Shown here: piece after piece, positions 9,986 through 64,000 of the stretch | Layout: every line of letters begins with the position of its first letter | Numbering within the stretch: position 1 is the first letter of the stretch | Assembly: GCA_052034955.1 (NCBI GenBank) | Contig: JBPOHZ010000008.1 | Coordinates: 27,614-91,613, forward strand | DNA length: 64,000 nt | Origin: Candidatus Saccharimonadota bacterium | GTDB lineage: Bacteria; Patescibacteriota; Saccharimonadia; Saccharimonadales; AWTP1-31 | Direction: 5' to 3' | Notes under the pieces: model-generated | Databases searched by the model: none | Told to the model about the DNA's origin: nothing | The model's input: only the letters and a program-made list of their open reading frames with translations | Made by a program: the position numbers and the translations under genes

Positions 9986-10398
9986 GGGGCTGAATTTTAA
10001 GCTCGACGTTGGACTTTAACAGACTTTAATGGCAGGCCGGATTGATCTACACGTTAGCTGGATCAAAATTATAGTTGCAGAAAAATCTACAGCTCGCGGA
10101 TCTCTAATTAAAGAACTAGCTGCAAAGCTTGTTCCTAATTCAGAGTTCGCACTAGCAGCCTAATTTAATTAGACTGCCGCTTCATAAGTGACATCAGATA
10201 ATTTATGTCAGCGCTATATACTTCTGATTGCTCCAGACTTATTTGCCCATAAGTTTGGCTAAGCCTTAGGGCTGCAGCCATTACATTTTTTGTTTGTTTA
10301 CACTGTTTTGGCTAAAGAAACATCCAAACAAACTAAGCCTGTAGTCATAAAGCCATGTTAACTGACGGACGCGGGGGCAGTACCCGCCAGCTCCACCA
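9986..10398 (+). ncRNA. ssrA: tmRNA (SsrA)
   Basis: 5' GGGGCUGA pairs with 3' CAGCUCC-A-CCA, including the G3:U wobble. T-stem is GCGGG/CCCGC. An internal tag reading frame ends ...NSEFALAA-TAA (stop 10161-10163). An intrinsic terminator follows. The resume codon is uncertain. Confidence 0.9.
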
Positions 10399-20272: not shown

Positions 20273-20337
20273 AAGATAATTGACACAAATACAAAAATAA
20301 TATATCGTATTCAATGACTATTAAGTCATACGTTGAT

Positions 20338-20392
20338 CTGCATATCTGTATTTGGTCGCTTGGATAAGCAGGGAGTAAGTAGCGAAACCGGG
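20338..20392 (+). promoter_or_regulatory. Candidate cis-regulatory pseudoknot RNA, copy D
   Basis: P1 is CUGCAUAUC/GAUAAGCAG. The loop carries GGUCGCU, complementary to the downstream AGCGA-AA-CC. A TTGACA box lies at 20280-20285. The RBS-sequestering hairpin UCUCUAUC/GAUAGGAGA (20424-20446) precedes ATG 20452. Confidence 0.6.
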
Positions 20393-20451
20393 ACGAATCT
20401 CTCTTGAATACAAGTTTGTTCGATCTCTATCAATTAAGATAGGAGACCTTT

Positions 20452-44623: not shown

Positions 44624-44660
44624 ATGACTAATCAAAGCAATTTGGTTGTCGACTAAGAAG

Positions 44661-44712
44661 CAGTACTCGTATTTGGACGCTTGAGTATTGTGGAGTCACT
44701 AGCGTAACCGGG
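44661..44712 (+). promoter_or_regulatory. Candidate cis-regulatory pseudoknot RNA, copy B
   Basis: P1 is CAGUACUCG/UGAGUAUUG (9 bp, 2 G-U). Loop GGACGCU (44675-44681) is complementary to AGCGU-AA-CC (44701-44709). An RBS-sequestering hairpin lies at 44741-44759. Confidence 0.6.
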
Positions 44713-44762
44713 CAACAAGCTACTCTATTGAGTATCTCGAGCTCTTATAAATAAGGAGCAAT

Positions 44763-46163: not shown

Positions 46164-46274
46164 CACAACACTTTCTATCTAATAAGTATATATTTTAGAT
46201 AACTTTGTTGACAAATATCAAACTTACGTAGTACGCTTAAATCAATCAAAGCAATTTGGTTGTAGACAATGAAA

Positions 46275-46326
46275 CAATACTCGTATTTGGACGCTTGAGT
46301 ATTGCGGAGTCAGTAGCGTAACCGGG
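46275..46326 (+). promoter_or_regulatory. Candidate cis-regulatory pseudoknot RNA, copy C
   Basis: P1 is CAAUACUCG/UGAGUAUUG. The G-to-A change relative to copy B converts a G-U pair into A-U. GGACGCU is complementary to AGCGU-AA-CC. TTGACA lies at 46208-46213. Confidence 0.6.
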
Positions 46327-46352
46327 CAACGAAAAACTAATCTCATATAAGA

Positions 46353-53120: not shown

Positions 53121-53339
53121 ATGAGCAGAACGGATTACTTTAAATACTTGTCCTTAGTTCTATTGGCAATACTCTTTACACTTTTTGTAGTTAGTTATTC
53201 GGGCTATATTAAACACAGGGCGCCGCTTAAGGCCGTAGACCCAAACGTAAAATACGGCTACTTCCACCATCTAAAAGTTGTTACTTGGGCGACCCTAATT
53301 TATCGAATCGGCGTACGACTAAAATCAAAACGTAAATGA
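53121..53339 (+). CDS. Hypothetical small membrane protein
   Basis: 72-aa ORF with one TM helix. Confidence 0.35.
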   Translation: MSRTDYFKYLSLVLLAILFTLFVVSYSGYIKHRAPLKAVDPNVKYGYFHHLKVVTWATLIYRIGVRLKSKRK

Positions 53340-53965
53340 CAAACGATGATTTATCGTTAGTAACGTTGGACAACGCTAGTAGCTACTTGGAGCAAAACGA
53401 AAAAATAGTTACCAGGCTGATAGCCCAACAGAGCATGGCCGATCTGGATATCATGGCCGTCGAGATTACCAAATCGGAGTTCAAAAAAGTCGATTTCACA
53501 GGCAGTAGTCTGCGCCGAATTACACTGAGCAACTGCAAGTTCGAGCACTGTGATTTTATTACAACTGACATGTCGGATGGTGGCGTTCGACTTTGCGTAT
53601 TTATTAGTTGCCGGATCTCAAATCTAGATCTATCCACTAGCCACCTAAAAGATCTGATATTCAGGGATTGTAAGATAGATTCGCTAAATCTACGGATGAC
53701 CAAATGCCAGGCAATCACATTTGTGGATTGCATCATAGACGAGGTAGATATGTTAGGCTCGGAACTATCCAAGGTAAAGTTCGAAAAATGCCAAATAGCC
53801 AAAATTGATATTTCCAACTCCAAACTTAATAAAGTAGATATCTCCGAGTCCGAAGTGGTAGGAGTAAACGGACTACCAACGGCCAAAGGCTTAATTATTA
53901 GCGACCAACAACTTTACCAGCTAGCTCCAATGTTTGCCAACGAGTTGGGTATTATTGTCTCTTAA
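53336..53965 (+). CDS. Pentapeptide-repeat protein
   Basis: 209 aa. Long run of A(D/N)LXX-type pentads, for example DFTGSSLRRITLSNCKFEHCDFITTDMSDG. Confidence 0.8.
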   Translation: MTNDDLSLVTLDNASSYLEQNEKIVTRLIAQQSMADLDIMAVEITKSEFKKVDFTGSSLRRITLSNCKFEHCDFITTDMSDGGVRLCVFISCRISNLDLSTSHLKDLIFRDCKIDSLNLRMTKCQAITFVDCIIDEVDMLGSELSKVKFEKCQIAKIDISNSKLNKVDISESEVVGVNGLPTAKGLIISDQQLYQLAPMFANELGIIVS

Positions 53966-54007: not shown

Positions 54008-54370
54008 ATGAAAAAGCCACTAGGCCGATTTTTAATTCGCTGGTTTGTTTGCAGCTTGGGTCTTTGGATTGCTGCAGCATTACTTGGTGACAAGATAAAC
54101 TACGGAGAAAGCTCCGGAGTGATAATTATTTCCGGATTAATCTTAGCTTTGGTTAACGCCATCATTAAACCTTTGGTTATTTTGCTGTCTCTGCCAGCTA
54201 TTTTATTTAGCTTAGGATTGTTTATGATTGTTATCAATGGATTAATGGTCATGTTGGTCAGCAAACTTTATTCTCCGTTGCACGTCACTAACTTTGCGGC
54301 TGCCATGATTGGCGGAATGGTTATCGGATTAGTAAACTATCTGGTGACCACTATTCTAGAAGACAAATAA
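54008..54370 (+). CDS. DUF360 / phage-holin-4-like membrane protein (YvlD-like)
   Basis: 120 aa with 4 TM helices. LVNAIIKPLVILLSLPAILFSLGLFMIVINGLM matches the DUF360 core pattern. Confidence 0.75.
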   Translation: MKKPLGRFLIRWFVCSLGLWIAAALLGDKINYGESSGVIIISGLILALVNAIIKPLVILLSLPAILFSLGLFMIVINGLMVMLVSKLYSPLHVTNFAAAMIGGMVIGLVNYLVTTILEDK

Positions 54371-57643: not shown

Positions 57644-57724
57644 TGTTTTTTGGCGTCCACCCAGGGATCCAAATGTGCTATTATATCTCAAGAAGATTAC
57701 GCTTTATTTAATACAAGAGGGTCC

Positions 57725-59362
57725 ATGAGTAAGGTTGCACATTATTTACAAGAGCATGTAAGTGGCGAAGTAACAGCTGCCGCAGACATGCGTCGTTATT
57801 TTTCGACAGACGGTGGAGTCTTTACGGTCACACCATCATTAATAGTTTATCCACGTAACGAAGGCGATGTCCGAAAAACGGCTAGATTTACTTGGCAATT
57901 AGCTGAACGGGGACGAATAGTTCCGATTACCGCAAGGGGTATGGGTACCGACCAAGGCGGTGCTGCTGTTGGCTCCGGAATAATGATGGTTTTCCCGGCG
58001 CACATGAATCGAATTTTAGAGCTAGATGGTAAGTCTGGTGATGTTGTTGTAGAGCCAGGCCTTTTATACGGCAAGTTACAACAAACATTGCATACCCATG
58101 GCAGGTTCTTGCCTCCATACCCATCTTCAATCGAGTACAGTACTATCGGTGGCGCAGTAGCCAACAATGCTGCCGGCGAAAAGACAATTAAATATGGTGC
58201 TACCAGGGACTTTGTAAAGAGTTTGCGAGTAGTTCTTGCCAATGGTGAGGCCATCGAGACCAAGCGGCTCAGCAAACGCGAGCTTAGCAAGAAGATGGGC
58301 CTAACCAATTTCGAGGGCGAAATTTACCGAGCTGTAGACGCGCTTATCGACGAGAACAAAAAAGTAATCGAAGATAGCCTACTAAATGTATCCAAGAACT
58401 CAGCAGGCTATGCACTGCGTGACGTAAAACGTAAAGATGGATCTTTTGATCTAACTCCGTTATTCGTAGGTTCTCAAGGAACGCTGGGTATAGTCACCGA
58501 GTCGACCATTAGTACGGCGGTTTATAACCCCGAAACTACTCTAATTGCTGCCTTCTTTGATGATCTTCAAGTTGCCGAGCAGGTAATATCCGAAATTCGT
58601 GCATTGCCAGAAATACCTAGTGCTATGGAGCTTGTCGATGAGCACCTATTAACATATTTAGACCAGCATAACCCTAATCAGCTAAAGGGAATCGTCGAAA
58701 AACCTTTTCATAAGCTGATCGTTTTGATCGAATTCGACAATAGTAATGTCCGAATTCAGAAGAAGATGGCCAAGCGGGCACTAAAAATTCTTAACAAATC
58801 TCAGGTTAAATACCAAATAGAGACTGATGAACACGAGAAAGAAAAGCTTTGGCAAATCCGCCATAGTGCGGCGGCGGTTATATCGCACTCCGAAGGAAAC
58901 GTAAAAGCTCTGCCAATTATCGAAGACGGAATAGTACCTACCGAGAAGTTCCAGCAATACATCAAAGGTGTTTACGAGTTATTCGATAAGTACAAGTTGC
59001 AAGCTGCTATCTGGGGACACGCCGGTAACGCCAACCTTCACATGCAGCCATTCCTAGACCTCAGCCAGGTAGGCGATAGACAAAAAGTCTTTAAGATTAT
59101 CGATGAGTATTACAACATGGTTATAGATCTTGGGGGTAGTACTAGTGGCGAGCACAGTGATGGACGTTTGCGAGCTGCCTATTTACCAAAACTATATGGC
59201 CAAGAAATGTATGGTGTCTTTCAAAAACTTAAGGCTATTTTTGACCCACACGGAACCATGAACCCAGGTGTCAAGATTGATGTCACGGTAGATGATGTGA
59301 AGCCTCTTCTTAGGCACGAATACTCTATGAGTCACCTTGGTCATCACTTACCTAGGAGCTAA
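57725..59362 (+). CDS. FAD-linked oxidase (GlcD/D-lactate dehydrogenase-like)
   Basis: FAD_binding_4 pattern (VYPRNEGDV...ITARGMGTDQGGAAVG), GSQGTLGIVTE, and C-terminal GGSTSGEHSDG. AGAGGG lies 4 nt upstream of ATG 57725. Confidence 0.85.
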   Translation: MSKVAHYLQEHVSGEVTAAADMRRYFSTDGGVFTVTPSLIVYPRNEGDVRKTARFTWQLAERGRIVPITARGMGTDQGGAAVGSGIMMVFPAHMNRILELDGKSGDVVVEPGLLYGKLQQTLHTHGRFLPPYPSSIEYSTIGGAVANNAAGEKTIKYGATRDFVKSLRVVLANGEAIETKRLSKRELSKKMGLTNFEGEIYRAVDALIDENKKVIEDSLLNVSKNSAGYALRDVKRKDGSFDLTPLFVGSQGTLGIVTESTISTAVYNPETTLIAAFFDDLQVAEQVISEIRALPEIPSAMELVDEHLLTYLDQHNPNQLKGIVEKPFHKLIVLIEFDNSNVRIQKKMAKRALKILNKSQVKYQIETDEHEKEKLWQIRHSAAAVISHSEGNVKALPIIEDGIVPTEKFQQYIKGVYELFDKYKLQAAIWGHAGNANLHMQPFLDLSQVGDRQKVFKIIDEYYNMVIDLGGSTSGEHSDGRLRAAYLPKLYGQEMYGVFQKLKAIFDPHGTMNPGVKIDVTVDDVKPLLRHEYSMSHLGHHLPRS

Positions 59363-59373
59363 TAGGGTTCCGT

Positions 59374-62300
59374 ATGGCTCGAGATAAATCGATCCTAAGA
59401 AGGTTGTTTAGGAAGAACAATCTGCCTAAATTCTATAGCCGCAGAATTAGAGGTAACAAAATTTTTTCTGCTATAGCTGGTTCGCTGTTGTTTACGATTT
59501 TGGCTATATTGCTGCTTAGGGCTAGGTCGTCATTTGAGCAGAGCGCCTGGAGACTATTATTTACCGGCAATAAGCCAGACTTTTTAGCTATGGGCGGAGT
59601 GCTGGCGGCTATTGGGCTCCTTGCCTTGGCCCTGACAATAATCTACTGCTTCGTAGATTACAGGCGACACAAAAAGCCGTTAGCGCTTGAAGATCCTGGT
59701 GTCAAATACAGCTTACTCCATCATGCTAAGGCAGTTTTTATACCTAGGGCTTCGTATTACAAAAAACGGACATTACTGTGGTCTGGCTACACGGCTGTTT
59801 TGTCGGTATTGCTGGTAGCGGCAGTTGCCGTGCAGCTTAGTCGAACCTATGCCTATGCTCCGAATGAATTTGTAACTACTTGGGATATCCAGCAACCGAC
59901 AAAAACGCTCACCATACCGTCATACAGCCTTGGTGGCTATAATTACAATATAGACTGGGGTGATGGCAACGTAGATACGGGTGTGACAGCCGCCGCTTAC
60001 CATACCTATGCATCAAAAGGAGTTTATACCGTTAAAATTAGCGGTACATTTCCGCGTATGGTTCTAGACTCGTCTAATGCCGGTGAACTGATTACTGTGG
60101 ATCAATGGGGCAATAATCCTTGGGCAACAATGGAGTCTGCTTTTCAAGATGCCAACAGATTAACTATAACCGCATCTGATGCACCTGATCTGTCTAACGT
60201 TACATCGATGGCCAATATGTTCTTGGGGGCAAGTCAGCTCAATCAACCATTGAACAGCTGGGACGTTAGCAATGTCACGAATATGAGTCAGTTGTTTCTT
60301 GGGGCTTACAATTTTAATCAACCACTGGATAACTGGGATGTTAGTAACGTCACGAATATGCATAGTATGTTTAAGAATGCTGTTACTTTCGACCAACCCC
60401 TTAATGGCTGGGATGTTAGTTCGGTAGTATATGGCAACTTTGAATCTATGTTCTCCAGTGCCGTCAGCTTCAACCAGCCACTGGATAGCTGGGATGTTAG
60501 TAACGCCACTATTCTAGGTAGGATGTTTGAATCTGCTGCGAGCTTCAACCAACCTCTTGACGGATGGAACGTAAGTAGCGTAACTAACATGTCTGGTATG
60601 TTTCGTGGTGCAACATCATTTGACCAGCCGCTAGCTAACTGGGACGTTAGCAGCGTGCAAGATATGTCTGCCATGTTTGATTCTGCTAGAGTCTTTGACC
60701 AGCCACTCGCTAGCTGGAATGTCAGTGGTGTGACAGATATGCGCCAAATGTTTGCGAGTACACACAACTTTAACCAACCACTTAATGGTTGGGATGTTAG
60801 CAGCGTGCAAGATATGTCCAGGATGTTTAGTTCTACCGACGCCTTTAACCAACCACTTAATGGTTGGGATGTTAGCAGCGTAACAGATATGAACTCGATG
60901 TTCAGTTATAGCCAGGTCTTTGATCAATCAATAAACGATTGGGATGTAAGTAATGTTACTAACATGGCCGGAATGTTTGGATCCACTAGCTTATTTAACT
61001 CGCCGCTTGATCAATGGAATACTGGTGCGGTACAAACAATGGAAAGTATGTTTTCTGGTGCGGTGGTATTTAACCAGCCTATAGATAGCTGGGATACATC
61101 TAGCGTTACTAACATGGCCGGAATGTTCAGTTACACACCGGCGTTTAATCAGCCCCTAAATAGCTGGGATACATCTAGCGTTACGGGCGAGAGTGGCGTT
61201 TATTATCAGTACTACGGCATGGATAGTATGTTCCAGCAGGCGGAATCTTTTAATCAACCGCTAAACAATTGGGATACATCTAGCGTTACTAACATGTCCG
61301 AAATGTTCTTTATCGCACCACTTTTTAACCAACCGCTAAACAACTGGGATGTTAGCAGCGTTAAGGACATGGATTATATGTTTAGTCGGGCGACCAATTT
61401 TAATTCATCGGTTGCAGGTTGGGCGTGGGATAATCCAGTAACAATGTCATCAATGTTTGCCAATGCATCGGCATTTAACCAGCCCGTGGACGACTGGGAT
61501 GTTAGTCAGGTTACGGCTATGGACTATATGTTTATTAATGCTGATGTCTTTGACCGGTCACTCGGTAGCTGGGACGTCGGCAATGTTACAACTATGTATA
61601 GAATGCTCGAGAGCACCACCGGTTTGTCTGATCTAAACTATGATCTGTCTCTAATTGGGTGGCTATCGCATGGCGTACGGTCCAACGTACAGCTAGGCGC
61701 CTATAACTTGATGTATTGTCGGGCAATAACGGCACGACTTACCCTGGTAAATGATTACAATTGGAGCATTACAGATGGTGGTGAAGGATGTGAGGTGCCA
61801 ACGATTAGCACAACAACCGCCGATGGAACATACGGAGCAGGGACCGTTATTCCGCTTCAGATAACGTTTGTGACGCCGGTATATGTTACTGGTACGCCTC
61901 AGCTAAACCTTGCCCATGGTCCAAGCGCACAGTATGTGAGCGGTTCTGGAACCACGGTACTTACATTTGCCTACACCGTGTCCCAGGGTGACAATGCCAA
62001 TCAATTAGACTGGCTATACTTTGGCCCAGATAGCCCCTTCATATCTTTAAACGGAGGTACCCTAAAGTACCAAGACGTACAAGATTTATCATTAGACGAT
62101 CGAAGATGGCCAGTAGGTGGTGGGTTAAACCTTGGGACAAATCATAGTATTCGCATAGATACAGTGCTGCAAACTGACTTTAAGCTAGATATTTCACTGC
62201 CCACACCAAAGCCGATCTTGAGCGGATCAACAGTATCGTCGCACGTTACCATAACCAATCAGGGGCCTAACGACTCCTTTTATGGTGGCGGCATGTTTTA

Positions 62301-64000
62301 TGTATTACCGCCTGGGTTAACATATAGCTCTAACACTAACACCGACAAGGTTAGTTGTGCCTTTATTGGAAGTGGAGCAGAATCGGGCGAACCATATTTT
62401 GCAGAAGTATATTCGGACAATGGTCTTATTCTTTGCAATTCAAATGACGAATCAACACCATTACCCATTGGGCAAAGTGTTGAGTTCGATATAGCCCTTA
62501 GCGCAACTATTGATATTCCGGATGGCAGTATATTCGGTGGCATTTATATAGACAGCGATCTTGAAACTGTGGTTTTGGATCAATATTTTGAGGCCTATAC
62601 AAACCGACAGGATTTTACCCTGTTGTCCAGTAACAATGTCAGTCGCAAGACGTACACTATTACAGATGTTGAGCCCCCAACAACCAGCTATAAATGCAGT
62701 GACTTGACTGCTTCAATCGATAAGCAAACCGGCAACAGAACAGTGCCATTAACAGTCAAATTTAAAGCTAAAGGTCAGGTTCTAAACACATCTATCAAAT
62801 CCTATTTATACGATTTTGGAGATGGTGTATCGAAAGATTCAACTGGTGCATCCATAAACCATACCTACAGAAAGGCTGGTGTCTTCACTGCGCAAGTACG
62901 AATAAAAACAGACAAAGGCATAACCCCGGCAACTGCAGTTTGTAAGCTGACTATTACTGTAGACCGGACACCTGCAGCAGCTACTACTTCTGTACCTACA
63001 AAAACAAAATCGTCAGATAATGTACCTACACCCGAAAAATTTGAATCATTATTAAGGGCTGGTGGTGATGTAGATAAACTGTCAAATATATCAACTCTTG
63101 CAAGTACTCGGCCAGGCGGGGTCGATCTGTATTCTAGTACATTTATGTCACTGTTATTACTCCTGGCCTTAGCTTATGCTCTGCAGGCGTGGCGCGAATA
63201 TCGTTTTGTAAGAGATTCTAAGCAAGCTATTGCAGCTGCTAAGCAGAGTGCCAAAAGAACCCAACAGTTCCTCGAGATAATTAGTCATTATCTTAACACG
63301 CCGCTTGCTATATTGCAGGGCGCTCATGAGTTAATGACCAGCAAGCATGCATTAGATAGCTCATTCCTTATAGGGTTCGGCCATAAACTCGCTGCCCTCA
63401 ATACAATGGTGCAAGGATTCGAAGTCTCGGTGCAGAGCGCCCTTGGGCAGGACGGCCGGACTGGTTTTACCGATGATGACCAAAAGCTACTAACAAAAGC
63501 AGGAAAACTCTGGATTAGCTTGCTCGGTATTGCACTGGCTATTGCGGCTATTGATTTAACACTACTATTTATGGGTGTCTACGAAAAGCGGGGTGGTCGG
63601 CTGGTCAATGCTATAATCTTAACCCTATTTTCTGGGTTGCTGATCGGTGCATTGAGCTTTTATCTTAAACGTTCCAAGGTTCTGCATAACGGCATCAACC
63701 AGGAGGTATCGAATATGACCACACTTGCCAAACAAAAGGCCGATCTTTTGCAGACGGTTGCACCATCGCTGCAATACCATACCGACAAATTGAAACAGGG
63801 TACCGAAGGTATGTCACAGCTTGCCGATGCACAGACATTAGTAAACGGCTTGGCTATGCTGCAGCAGTTAACACAAGAACTCACTAGCTATCAGCGATTG
63901 ACTCAAGTTGAACAGGCGAGCACAGTTGATGTTAGTATGTATTACCAGCAGTCAATTGAGCCGGAAATTAAGAGAGTTGCACAGGCAAAGGGGAATACCT
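59374..64000 (+). CDS. Giant polytopic membrane/surface protein (3' end beyond the window): DUF285/BspA-type repeats, Ig-like, DUF11-like, PKD, TM helices, H-box-like motif
   Basis: ATG 59374 lies 11 nt after the upstream stop. I read frame +1 codon by codon to nt 63999 without finding a stop, and the frame was verified at 60259, 62797, 63286 and 63961. The ORF is absent from the track because it has no stop in the window. Confidence 0.85.
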   Translation, partial: MARDKSILRRLFRKNNLPKFYSRRIRGNKIFSAIAGSLLFTILAILLLRARSSFEQSAWRLLFTGNKPDFLAMGGVLAAIGLLALALTIIYCFVDYRRHKKPLALEDPGVKYSLLHHAKAVFIPRASYYKKRTLLWSGYTAVLSVLLVAAVAVQLSRTYAYAPNEFVTTWDIQQPTKTLTIPSYSLGGYNYNIDWGDGNVDTGVTAAAYHTYASKGVYTVKISGTFPRMVLDSSNAGELITVDQWGNNPWATMESAFQDANRLTITASDAPDLSNVTSMANMFLGASQLNQPLNSWDVSNVTNMSQLFLGAYNFNQPLDNWDVSNVTNMHSMFKNAVTFDQPLNGWDVSSVVYGNFESMFSSAVSFNQPLDSWDVSNATILGRMFESAASFNQPLDGWNVSSVTNMSGMFRGATSFDQPLANWDVSSVQDMSAMFDSARVFDQPLASWNVSGVTDMRQMFASTHNFNQPLNGWDVSSVQDMSRMFSSTDAFNQPLNGWDVSSVTDMNSMFSYSQVFDQSINDWDVSNVTNMAGMFGSTSLFNSPLDQWNTGAVQTMESMFSGAVVFNQPIDSWDTSSVTNMAGMFSYTPAFNQPLNSWDTSSVTGESGVYYQYYGMDSMFQQAESFNQPLNNWDTSSVTNMSEMFFIAPLFNQPLNNWDVSSVKDMDYMFSRATNFNSSVAGWAWDNPVTMSSMFANASAFNQPVDDWDVSQVTAMDYMFINADVFDRSLGSWDVGNVTTMYRMLESTTGLSDLNYDLSLIGWLSHGVRSNVQLGAYNLMYCRAITARLTLVNDYNWSITDGGEGCEVPTISTTTADGTYGAGTVIPLQITFVTPVYVTGTPQLNLAHGPSAQYVSGSGTTVLTFAYTVSQGDNANQLDWLYFGPDSPFISLNGGTLKYQDVQDLSLDDRRWPVGGGLNLGTNHSIRIDTVLQTDFKLDISLPTPKPILSGSTVSSHVTITNQGPNDSFYGGGMFYVLPPGLTYSSNTNTDKVSCAFIGSGAESGEPYFAEVYSDNGLILCNSNDESTPLPIGQSVEFDIALSATIDIPDGSIFGGIYIDSDLETVVLDQYFEAYTNRQDFTLLSSNNVSRKTYTITDVEPPTTSYKCSDLTASIDKQTGNRTVPLTVKFKAKGQVLNTSIKSYLYDFGDGVSKDSTGASINHTYRKAGVFTAQVRIKTDKGITPATAVCKLTITVDRTPAAATTSVPTKTKSSDNVPTPEKFESLLRAGGDVDKLSNISTLASTRPGGVDLYSSTFMSLLLLLALAYALQAWREYRFVRDSKQAIAAAKQSAKRTQQFLEIISHYLNTPLAILQGAHELMTSKHALDSSFLIGFGHKLAALNTMVQGFEVSVQSALGQDGRTGFTDDDQKLLTKAGKLWISLLGIALAIAAIDLTLLFMGVYEKRGGRLVNAIILTLFSGLLIGALSFYLKRSKVLHNGINQEVSNMTTLAKQKADLLQTVAPSLQYHTDKLKQGTEGMSQLADAQTLVNGLAMLQQLTQELTSYQRLTQVEQASTVDVSMYYQQSIEPEIKRVAQAKGNT
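60100..61615 (+). repeat. Array of about 18-20 protein repeats of about 26 aa (F..FNQPL..WDVS.VT.M..MF), DUF285 / 26-residue surface-protein repeat type
   Basis: About 18 clear units with W(D/N)(V/T)S...M..MF periodicity plus two degenerate leading units. Several units share identical DNA blocks of more than 30 nt. Confidence 0.85.

Follow-up and report, generated by a model that had tools for sequence, protein, structure and literature searches.

The right-hand end of the window (the whole 64,000-nucleotide stretch of DNA that was analysed) raises the question of what is encoded by a very long open frame which the first-pass annotation had read by eye as a polytopic surface protein with a DUF285/BspA-type repeat ectodomain and a signalling-type motif. 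We consider it likely, with a probability of roughly 70%, that its product is a sensor histidine kinase of Candidatus Saccharibacteria (CPR), 1682 aa long and crossing the membrane six times, with a PARCEL ectodomain and a core composed of DHp1, a TM5-TM6 hairpin, DHp2 and a CA domain.

Open frame and domain order

Frame +1 is free of stops over 1542 codons, from the ATG at 59374 to the window edge at 64000, as had been claimed. It had also been pointed out that no plus-strand ORF is listed after 59362; this absence is real, although it reflects a listing rule that omits ORFs running off an end, and not biology. The missing 3' end is supplied by the NCBI protein P0003 (1682 aa, from a contig of 98,543 bp), which has the same start and is identical to the translated frame (100%, 1542/1542 residues). 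The gene is therefore expected to end near 64422, about 422 nt past the window. The 140 additional residues of P0003 form the HATPase_c catalytic domain, so that the part of the CA domain beyond the window is known only through this identical database protein. The order of domains predicted by eye was nearly all correct, and the features are the following:

59374..64000 (+) gene for the giant sensor histidine kinase, with codons 1-1542 (of 1682) in the window, from the open frame and the identity to P0003
59374..59460 (+) basic, K/R-rich cytoplasmic N-terminal tail, aa 1-29
59461..59517 (+) TM1, aa 30-48, Kyte-Doolittle (KD) hydropathy 2.58
59599..59655 (+) TM2, aa 76-94, KD 2.68
59656..59775 (+) cytoplasmic loop, aa 95-134, with ten K/R and the conserved motif RRHKKPLALEDPGVKYSLLHHAKAV
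59776..59832 (+) TM3, aa 135-153, exits to the ectodomain, KD 2.03
59869..60105 (+) PKD-like beta-sandwich, aa 166-244, capping the BspA/DUF285 unit at its N-terminal end
60109..61623 (+) PARCEL/DUF285 array, aa 246-750, a predicted LRR-like solenoid of about 18-20 units, each of 25 aa
60160..60927 (-) non-genic ORFs, antisense shadows of the PARCEL array
61624..61788 (+) helical cap at the C-terminal end of the DUF285 unit, aa 751-805 (LSDLNYD..GW...YC...W.I.D.G..C)
61789..62178 (+) extracellular module without Pfam match, aa 806-935
62179..62673 (+) juxtamembrane module, DUF11-like and conserved in the kinase-core family, aa 936-1100
62740..62952 (+) PKD domain, aa 1123-1193, PF18911 and PF00801
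63127..63183 (+) TM4, aa 1252-1270, runs into the H-box helix, KD 1.83
63220..63441 (+) DHp1 hairpin with H-box SHYLNTPL, predicted phospho-acceptor His1305 (codon 63286-63288)
63514..63666 (+) TM5-TM6 hairpin between DHp1 and DHp2, aa 1381-1399 and 1413-1431, KD 2.39 and 2.16
63694..63918 (+) DHp2, a putative DHp-like hairpin lacking the His (KQKADLLQTVAPSL ... NGLAML)
63931..64000 (+) first part of the CA (HATPase_c) domain, which runs past the window edge

Membrane topology

The six hydrophobic segments found by Kyte-Doolittle hydropathy reproduce the pattern of three, one and two transmembrane helices that had been proposed, and the very basic N-terminus described before is evident in the K/R-rich first 29 residues, which fit an N-in topology. 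Loop charges read from the sequence agree with it. Judged by hydropathy together with the positive-inside rule, the chain would begin inside the cell, TM1-TM3 would serve as an anchor, about 1100 aa would be exposed outside and TM4 would lead back to the cytoplasm. The N-terminal module is common to at least 23 family representatives, and its loop motif is kept in the L003 orthologue.

Ectodomain and stalk

The proposed 18-20 DUF285 units were borne out by 17 strict F[ND]xP..W[DN] motifs spaced 25 aa apart, by 18 units recovered with an HMM built from these motifs, by Pfam DUF285 (PF03382, E 1.1e-195, seven stretches) and by ten matches to the TIGR02167 PARCEL repeat. The AF2 model of aa 156-800 (pLDDT 93.8, pTM 0.87) has one short strand per 25 residues. 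Foldseek placed it nearest to solved structures of LRR receptors and adhesins, the top matches being LGR5, TLR9, internalin A and the LRR protein 4h09; the TM-scores are so low (0.15-0.26) that the likeness to LRR receptors holds at the level of fold class only.

Both ends of the array are capped. The N-terminal cap (strands at residues 11-89 of the AF2 model, pLDDT >88) gives a weak PKD_4 match (22.5 bits) and carries the consensus YNYxVDWGDG common to BspA-family proteins, while the C-terminal cap (helices at residues 598-610 and 630-640 of the model) has a consensus kept in 43 BspA-family sequences. As modelled, the ectodomain has every part of a BspA-family unit, with about 18 PARCEL/DUF285 repeats folded into an LRR-like solenoid between a beta-sandwich cap and a helical cap. 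The minus-strand ORFs at 60160-60927 had been taken as shadows, and the 25-aa periodicity of their translation, within the PARCEL array, agrees with this. Dyad symmetry and opposite-strand ORFs have been reported for PARCEL (Roske et al. 2010, PMC2996958).

Three modules would form a stalk after the DUF285 unit. The PKD domain was placed almost exactly by eye (about 62740-62965) and is recognized by PF18911 (PKD_4, 53.2 bits against a cutoff of 27) and PF00801 (45.5 bits). The DUF11-like assignment is sub-threshold: aa 936-1100 score 15.8 bits in Pfam (E 0.018, cutoff 24.6). The module aligns with its counterparts in P0151/L003 (25% identity; the L003 copy scores 20.4 bits) and P0065 (35%). 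The Ig-like fold suggested for aa 806-935 has no profile support, as no Pfam entry matched this module even at E 10.

Kinase core

The H-box-like segment that had been noticed after TM4 is SHYLNTPL. Pfam HisKA scores below its cutoff on aa 1297-1323 (19.9 bits against 26.9), but in a PDB profile search His1305 aligns with the histidine of the HK853 H-box SHELRTPL, the family profile aligns with both alpha1 and alpha2 of the HK853 DHp, and the histidine is kept in 147 of 150 family representatives. A single helix spans TM4 and DHp1 alpha1 in the AF2 model of the homologue P0001. The check for HATPase_c downstream was positive, with aa 1558-1666 of P0003 matching at 73.8 bits (cutoff 26.4) and carrying N, G1, F and G2 boxes.

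The segment after TM6 had been called a coiled coil. AF2, hhalign and column statistics point instead to a DHp-like hairpin that lacks the histidine and is followed by the CA domain. In P0001 this region is modelled as two helices (H187-258 and H265-291), and DHp1 and DHp2 align in register over 63 columns (hhalign probability 70.5%, E 3.9e-5). Among the family representatives DHp2 keeps (R/K)xxF(I/L)xx(A/T/S)(A/S), with Q, E, S, A, K, D or G in the histidine column. The whole P0001 core is modelled as two helical hairpins, with two long helices between them, followed by an alpha/beta CA domain; confidence is modest (pLDDT 62.7, monomer, three-sequence alignment). Foldseek matched the core to DHp and CA of HK853, ZraS, CpxA and DivL (E about 1e-10 over about 230 columns). 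The predicted order of the core is therefore TM4, DHp1, TM5-TM6 hairpin, His-less DHp2 and CA.

A family in Saccharibacteria

The kinase core, and not the ectodomain, is the more unusual feature of this protein; it is unnamed, and no published description of the family was found in the literature. Over the whole 300-aa core 404 representatives were matched at E 1e-3, 160 at E 1e-10 and 44 at E 1e-30, which gives a family of at least 160 clusters at 50% identity. Its proteins, mostly of 1200-5556 aa, are publicly named "hypothetical protein" or "6-bladed beta-propeller", and every taxonomically labelled member seen belongs to Saccharibacteria, as do the named cluster members and all five genome loci (5/5), which come from MAGs.

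The architecture of DUF285 repeats on a multi-pass signalling protein had been considered unfamiliar. It does recur: PARCEL is present in 15 of the 150 best representatives of the family, and loci L011 and L015 likewise combine it with a kinase. None of the 120 best-matching ordinary DUF285 proteins has this combination. The closest kinase core (P0151, L003; 63% identity) carries NHL repeats as ectodomain, whereas the PARCEL-bearing P0065 has 43% identity over N-terminus and PARCEL and only 27% over the kinase core. With NHL propellers, fn3 and PARCEL as varying sensor cassettes on a shared scaffold, the family resembles a modular repertoire of receptors on the surface of these bacteria.

In the mechanism that we propose, the solenoid would bind a ligand or surface and the signal would pass through TM4 to DHp1; DHp2 would scaffold the CA domain, the TM5-TM6 hairpin would hold it at the membrane, and CA would phosphorylate the predicted acceptor His1305. 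The phosphoryl group would then go to a response regulator whose gene lies in another part of the genome. The check for a regulator nearby was negative: none is encoded within the 64-kb window, and none was found beside 14 of 15 related loci. Cultured Saccharibacteria are epibionts, and this receptor family may therefore sense host or environmental surfaces.

Alternative explanations

The protein could be an otherwise canonical HisKA kinase in which TM6 is followed by a signalling-helix or coiled-coil linker, with no duplicated DHp, and TM5-TM6 is a peripheral hydrophobic insertion of no mechanistic role. The lack of a Pfam match on this second helical region, the hhalign probability of only 70% and the low confidence of the AF2 core model speak for it. 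We regard it as unlikely, because the region retains the pre-H-box motif (R/K)xxF(I/L)xxAS, is predicted to fold as a two-helix hairpin and lies at the canonical spacing of about 105 aa from the CA domain, and because at least two hydrophobic segments are kept at the TM5-TM6 position in 146 of the 150 representatives; the PDB profile search also aligned its end with the end of DHp alpha2 and the start of CA in HK853, at a non-significant -1.4 bits.

A surface adhesin or anchor, attaching through the solenoid as BspA-type proteins do and carrying a vestigial or structural, non-signalling pseudokinase, is a little less probable still. Ordinary DUF285 proteins are surface proteins that have no kinase domain (none among the 120 best hits), the vicinity encodes no cognate response regulator, DHp2 has lost its histidine, and DivL, among the Foldseek matches, is deposited as a tyrosine kinase. 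However, the DHp1 histidine and SHYLNTP motif are almost invariant among 150 diverged representatives, and P0003 and its relatives have all four boxes (N, G1, F and G2) intact, which argues for a catalytically active kinase. Misjoining of a BspA-type gene to a kinase gene, or a pseudogene, is very improbable. Misassembly is a common risk for repeat-rich genes in MAGs, and the sole identical record, P0003, is probably from the same assembly; but the frame is uninterrupted over 4.6 kb, the order 3TM, PARCEL, DUF11-like module and kinase recurs on independent contigs (P0065, P0116, L015, L011), and the repeats have diverged in DNA, with a single array of 2.4 copies detected.

Comparison with known systems

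HisKA-class transmembrane kinases (of the type of HK853, CpxA and EnvZ) gave the best PDB sequence and fold matches for the core of the 59374 protein, which shares with them an H-box of the SHELRTPL type, a helix continuous with the membrane segment and a C-terminal HATPase_c with N, G1, F and G2 boxes. It differs from them in its ectodomain of about 1100 aa, in its sub-threshold HisKA score and in the TM hairpin and putative His-less hairpin that separate the histidine from CA: the family median from H-box to N-box is 267 aa, against roughly 105-115 aa in canonical kinases.

In CheA (P1/P3/P4) the phospho-acceptor histidine is on a separate helical domain and a dimerisation domain without histidine adjoins the ATP-binding domain. 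The arrangement proposed here resembles this as a functional analogy only; its histidine domain is HisKA-like and not HPt, is fused to a TM helix and is followed by a membrane hairpin, and P2 and P5 are absent. Receptors with LRR ectodomains (TLRs, LGR5, plant LRR receptor kinases) are likewise functional analogues, with a solenoid outside, a TM segment and cytoplasmic signalling, although the kinase chemistry here would be on His and not on Ser/Thr/Tyr.

With PARCEL/DUF285 proteins ("BspA family leucine-rich repeat surface proteins") the 59374 protein shares the 25-residue tandem repeat, both caps, PKD and DUF11 modules, membrane targeting and opposite-strand ORFs. The usual proteins of this group are secreted or lipoproteins, a T9SS tail is frequent, and none of the 120 best matches has a kinase domain, whereas the 59374 protein appears to use the PARCEL unit as the sensor of a six-pass histidine kinase.

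Extent of the gene and of its product

Translation of frame +1 from the ATG at 59374 gives 1542 codons without a stop up to the window edge, starting 11 nt past the stop of the upstream neighbour, an FAD-linked oxidase gene (57650-59362). The first-pass annotation had claimed a long ORF missing from the ORF track. The open frame is real, and its absence comes from a listing rule, since the ORF list omits ORFs running off an end; no + strand ORF is listed after 59362. A search of the representative library found P0003, a database protein (NCBI record, 98,543-bp contig) which shares the start and is 100% identical over 1542/1542 residues. The full gene therefore comprises 1682 codons and should end near 64422. 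Its product is named here the giant kinase. The closest relatives found in contig scans presented 68% identity in genome contigs and 67% in metagenome contigs.

The minus-strand ORFs at 60160-60927 lie inside the repeat array of this gene and their translation is periodic at 25 aa. Coding DNA with dyad symmetry and ORFs on the opposite strand were described in the paper defining the PARCEL repeat (PMC2996958). These ORFs are shadows and not genes, as had been proposed from the sequence. At the DNA level, TRF found a sole tandem repeat in the PARCEL array (60768-60947, 75-nt period, 2.4 copies, 80-87% identity). The other units have diverged in DNA, so that, one recent duplication excepted, the array is old.

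Membrane segments and N-terminal module

Six transmembrane segments were predicted by hydropathy.

Predicted transmembrane segments of the giant kinase
aa 30-48, TM1
aa 76-94, TM2
aa 135-153, TM3
aa 1252-1270, TM4
aa 1381-1399, TM5
aa 1413-1431, TM6

K and R abound in the N-terminal tail and in the loop between TM2 and TM3, and the stretches following TM4 and TM6 are basic. We infer that this charge pattern fits an N-in topology, under which aa 154-1251 would lie outside and both helical regions and the C-terminus inside. The N-terminal module of three TM segments is common to at least 23 family representatives, and had no match when run alone against Pfam. A 72-aa ORF (53121-53339, +) encodes a small TM protein carrying the motif 'KHRAPLKAVDPNVKYGYFHHLKVV'. 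The giant kinase has this motif as well, in the predicted cytoplasmic loop between TM2 and TM3 (41% identity at aa 82-121, E 1e-4), and the orthologue at locus L003 keeps it too.

Ectodomain

The DUF285 repeats recognized by eye in the first-pass annotation were borne out by Pfam (PF03382, E 1.1e-195, 638.8 bits, seven stretches) and by the NCBIfam PARCEL repeat TIGR02167 (196 bits, ten stretches). Seventeen strict motif matches occur at 25-aa spacing, and 18 units are counted by HMM. The AF2 model of aa 156-800 (pLDDT 93.8, pTM 0.87, alignment with 42 homologues) presents a beta-sandwich at the N-terminus, a solenoid with one short strand per 25 residues and a helical C-cap. Its Foldseek neighbours are LRR ectodomains and adhesins (LGR5, TLR9, internalin A and the LRR protein 4h09), with low TM-scores, and therefore only an LRR-like fold class is claimed. 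LRR_5 (PF13306) gave no match on the giant kinase in a Pfam scan with E up to 0.1; 'BspA family' is only the NCBI name for DUF285 homologues. Sequence relatives of the ectodomain number 7667. They occur in Bacteroidota, Asgard archaea and other groups as typical 'BspA family leucine-rich repeat surface proteins', in which DUF285 often stands beside PKD and at times also beside DUF11 and a T9SS tail. A kinase domain is absent from all of the best 120 of these 7667 relatives. As far as seen, the fusion of DUF285 to a kinase appears confined to the giant-kinase family.

Among the modules that follow the array, the PKD domain was confirmed at aa 1123-1193, where both profiles exceed their gathering scores (PF18911, 53.2 bits, cutoff 27; PF00801, 45.5 bits, cutoff 23.5). 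The other two domain calls made by eye fared less well. The proposed DUF11-like module (PF01345, aa 946-990) scored 15.8 bits (E 0.018), under the cutoff of 24.6, and the orthologous module of L003 scored 20.4 bits; this juxtamembrane module can at best be termed 'DUF11-like'. The Ig-like call for aa 806-935 is left without profile support, this segment having no Pfam match when searched in isolation. The NCBIfam model CPR_pilus_PamR was dismissed as an identity, its 23.9 bits (cutoff 300) reflecting generic beta-sandwich similarity.

Kinase core

A search with the last 442 aa of the window protein brought up the homologues P0001 and P0002, both with HATPase_c and both aligned from TM4 onward. 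The first-pass annotation had suggested looking for a HATPase_c domain downstream. The catalytic (CA) domain of the giant kinase lies mostly beyond the window edge, and the identical P0003 carries HATPase_c at aa 1558-1666 (73.8 bits, cutoff 26.4), with the N, G1, F and G2 boxes visible as NSLEYS, DNGPG, LFEPL and GLGLSL, respectively. HATPase_c is also carried by 15/15 related loci. By its sequence the giant kinase is thus a sensor histidine kinase, a known kind of protein, for which autophosphorylation is predicted.

The H-box SHYLNTPL occupies aa 1304-1311, with His1305 as the predicted phospho-acceptor. On this region Pfam HisKA scored 19.9 bits, below its cutoff of 26.9. The family profile aligns with the entire DHp of HK853, a canonical HisKA kinase, SHYLNTPL facing SHELRTPL with His on His. 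The His of this first hairpin (DHp1) is present in 147 of 150 representatives of clusters at 50% identity, and the Y, L, T and P of the motif in 132-144 of the 150. Past the H-box the core continues with a linker, TM5 and TM6, a second helical hairpin (DHp2) and the CA domain.

DHp2 keeps the pattern (R/K)xxF(I/L)xx(A/T/S)(A/S), and its His column is occupied by Q, E, S, A, K, D or G in the 150 representatives. The DHp1 and DHp2 profiles align in register over 63 columns (hhalign probability 70.5%, E 3.9e-5). These data moderately support, and do not prove, that the second hairpin is a diverged DHp copy which has lost its His. The AF2 model of the P0001 core, a monomer of modest confidence (pLDDT 62.7, 3-sequence alignment), has helices at 31-96 (TM4 and alpha1), 107-144 (alpha2), 147-180 (TM5), 187-258 (TM6 and alpha1') and 265-291 (alpha2'), followed by an alpha/beta domain. 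Foldseek related it to the DHp and CA structures of HK853, ZraS, CpxA and DivL (E about 1e-10, roughly 230 columns).

Distribution and mosaic relatives

A core profile built without the CA domain matched 404, 160 and 44 cluster representatives at E 1e-3, 1e-10 and 1e-30, respectively; the matches are end to end and lie about 140 aa ahead of the C-terminus. Among the best 150, 90 have at least 1000 aa and 42 at least 2000 aa, the maximum being 5556 aa. All five loci from species-representative genomes belong to Candidatus Saccharibacteria MAGs, and the named cluster members are Saccharibacteria proteins labelled 'hypothetical protein' or '6-bladed beta-propeller'. The sequences of this family are already public, without a functional name. 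No description of the family, or of a core consisting of DHp1, TM hairpin, His-less DHp2 and CA, was found in the literature on Saccharibacteria or Patescibacteria sensor kinases, two-component systems, or tandem and degenerate DHp domains. The 300-aa core profile would give annotation to several hundred clusters.

The ectodomains of the family vary and include NHL propellers, fn3, GLUG, Big and PKD. P0151, at locus L003, has NHL repeats and shares 63% identity with the window protein in the kinase core and 45% in the N-terminus. P0065 has PARCEL repeats and shares 43% in the N-terminus plus PARCEL region, 35% in the DUF11-like module and 27% in the kinase core. This pattern of identities, read without trees, suggests that sensor cassettes have been exchanged on a conserved scaffold.

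In one Saccharibacteria MAG two paralogous giant kinases of the family, of 1805 and 1225 aa, stand in tandem (L002, 1301-6718 and 7526-11203) with a 224-aa ORF between them. Another member, which exceeds 3000 aa and belongs to cluster P0047 (3106 aa), is divided between two contigs of a single MAG (L005, 1859-10594, and L004, 2-1465). In the L004 copy an in-frame stop lies beside the H-box region, and there are slight differences between the overlapping ends, which suggests either that the assembly broke at a repeat or that two almost identical copies exist.

Genomic context

A cognate response regulator had been proposed as a further check. None was detectable in the 64-kb window by tblastn with CheY, PhoB, NarL and the Saccharibacteria regulator of L001, so the kinase is an orphan in the available DNA. 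With the same queries, L001 was the only one of 15 related loci to show a regulator, 1.8 kb downstream; the other 14 had none detectable beside them. The L003 neighbourhood is unlike the window upstream of the kinase gene and the window ends inside the gene; L003 is therefore no guide to the genes downstream.

The housekeeping genes of the window include UvrC, aminopeptidase P, alanyl-tRNA synthetase and tmRNA (9986-10398, +, Rfam 85 bits). A pentapeptide-repeat protein (53336-53965, +) and a 4-TMS 'phage holin superfamily IV' protein (54008-54370, +) are encoded upstream of an SBP_bac_5 solute-binding protein, an ordinary context, and no link of these two genes to the kinase was seen. Three riboswitches scored above the Rfam gathering score.

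c-di-GMP-II riboswitches of the window
20317-20402, +, upstream of a 146-aa ORF without Pfam match
44639-44722, +, upstream of a 466-aa ORF without Pfam match
46253-46336, +, upstream of a 960-aa ORF with an SLT transglycosylase domain

Their positions suggest that cell-wall or surface genes of this small genome are under c-di-GMP control.

Proposed signalling and comparison with known kinases

Binding at the solenoid would be relayed via TM4 to DHp1. The CA domain, held close to the membrane by DHp2 and the TM hairpin, would phosphorylate His1305, and the phosphate would pass to a distant response regulator. We tentatively propose, at a probability of about 0.35, that these proteins form an undescribed class of histidine kinases, so far only in Saccharibacteria, in which a membrane hairpin connects two distinct domains, the phospho-acceptor DHp and the His-less DHp that bears the CA. 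Such an arrangement might give a DHp1/DHp2 bundle that is intramolecular or has eight helices, and the swappable giant ectodomains (PARCEL, NHL, fn3) would be receptors for host-cell or environmental surfaces. If true, this would mean an activation geometry unlike every solved kinase.

Three other explanations seem less likely. The protein could be an adhesin whose kinase part is vestigial, against which stand the almost invariant His of DHp1 and the intact boxes of P0003 and its relatives. It could also be a canonical kinase in which a long linker follows TM6, DHp2 alone having no match against Pfam; at least two hydrophobic segments are found between the hairpins in 146 of the 150 representatives. 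Finally, the joining of a DUF285 ectodomain to a kinase could be an assembly chimera; in the family DUF285 is also carried by L011, L015 and 15 of the 150 best representatives.

The Saccharibacteria in culture live as epibionts, are ultra-small and have very small genomes. In a genome of that size a 5-kb gene, which reaches 16 kb in relatives, represents a large investment, and giant kinases with interchangeable surface sensors are a concrete candidate for the sensing of the host.

In canonical HisKA kinases the CA domain directly follows the His-bearing DHp, and the H-box and N-box are about 110 aa apart. In the giant-kinase family, by contrast, a TM hairpin and a His-less DHp-like hairpin are placed between DHp1 and CA, and the median distance is 267 aa (150 representatives), which would make for an unusual geometry of autophosphorylation across the membrane hairpin and the His-less copy. 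In CheA the dimerisation domain adjoining the ATPase has no His; the His sits on another domain. The giant kinase would be alike in logic, by analogy only, as its His domain stands apart from the His-less hairpin before the ATPase.
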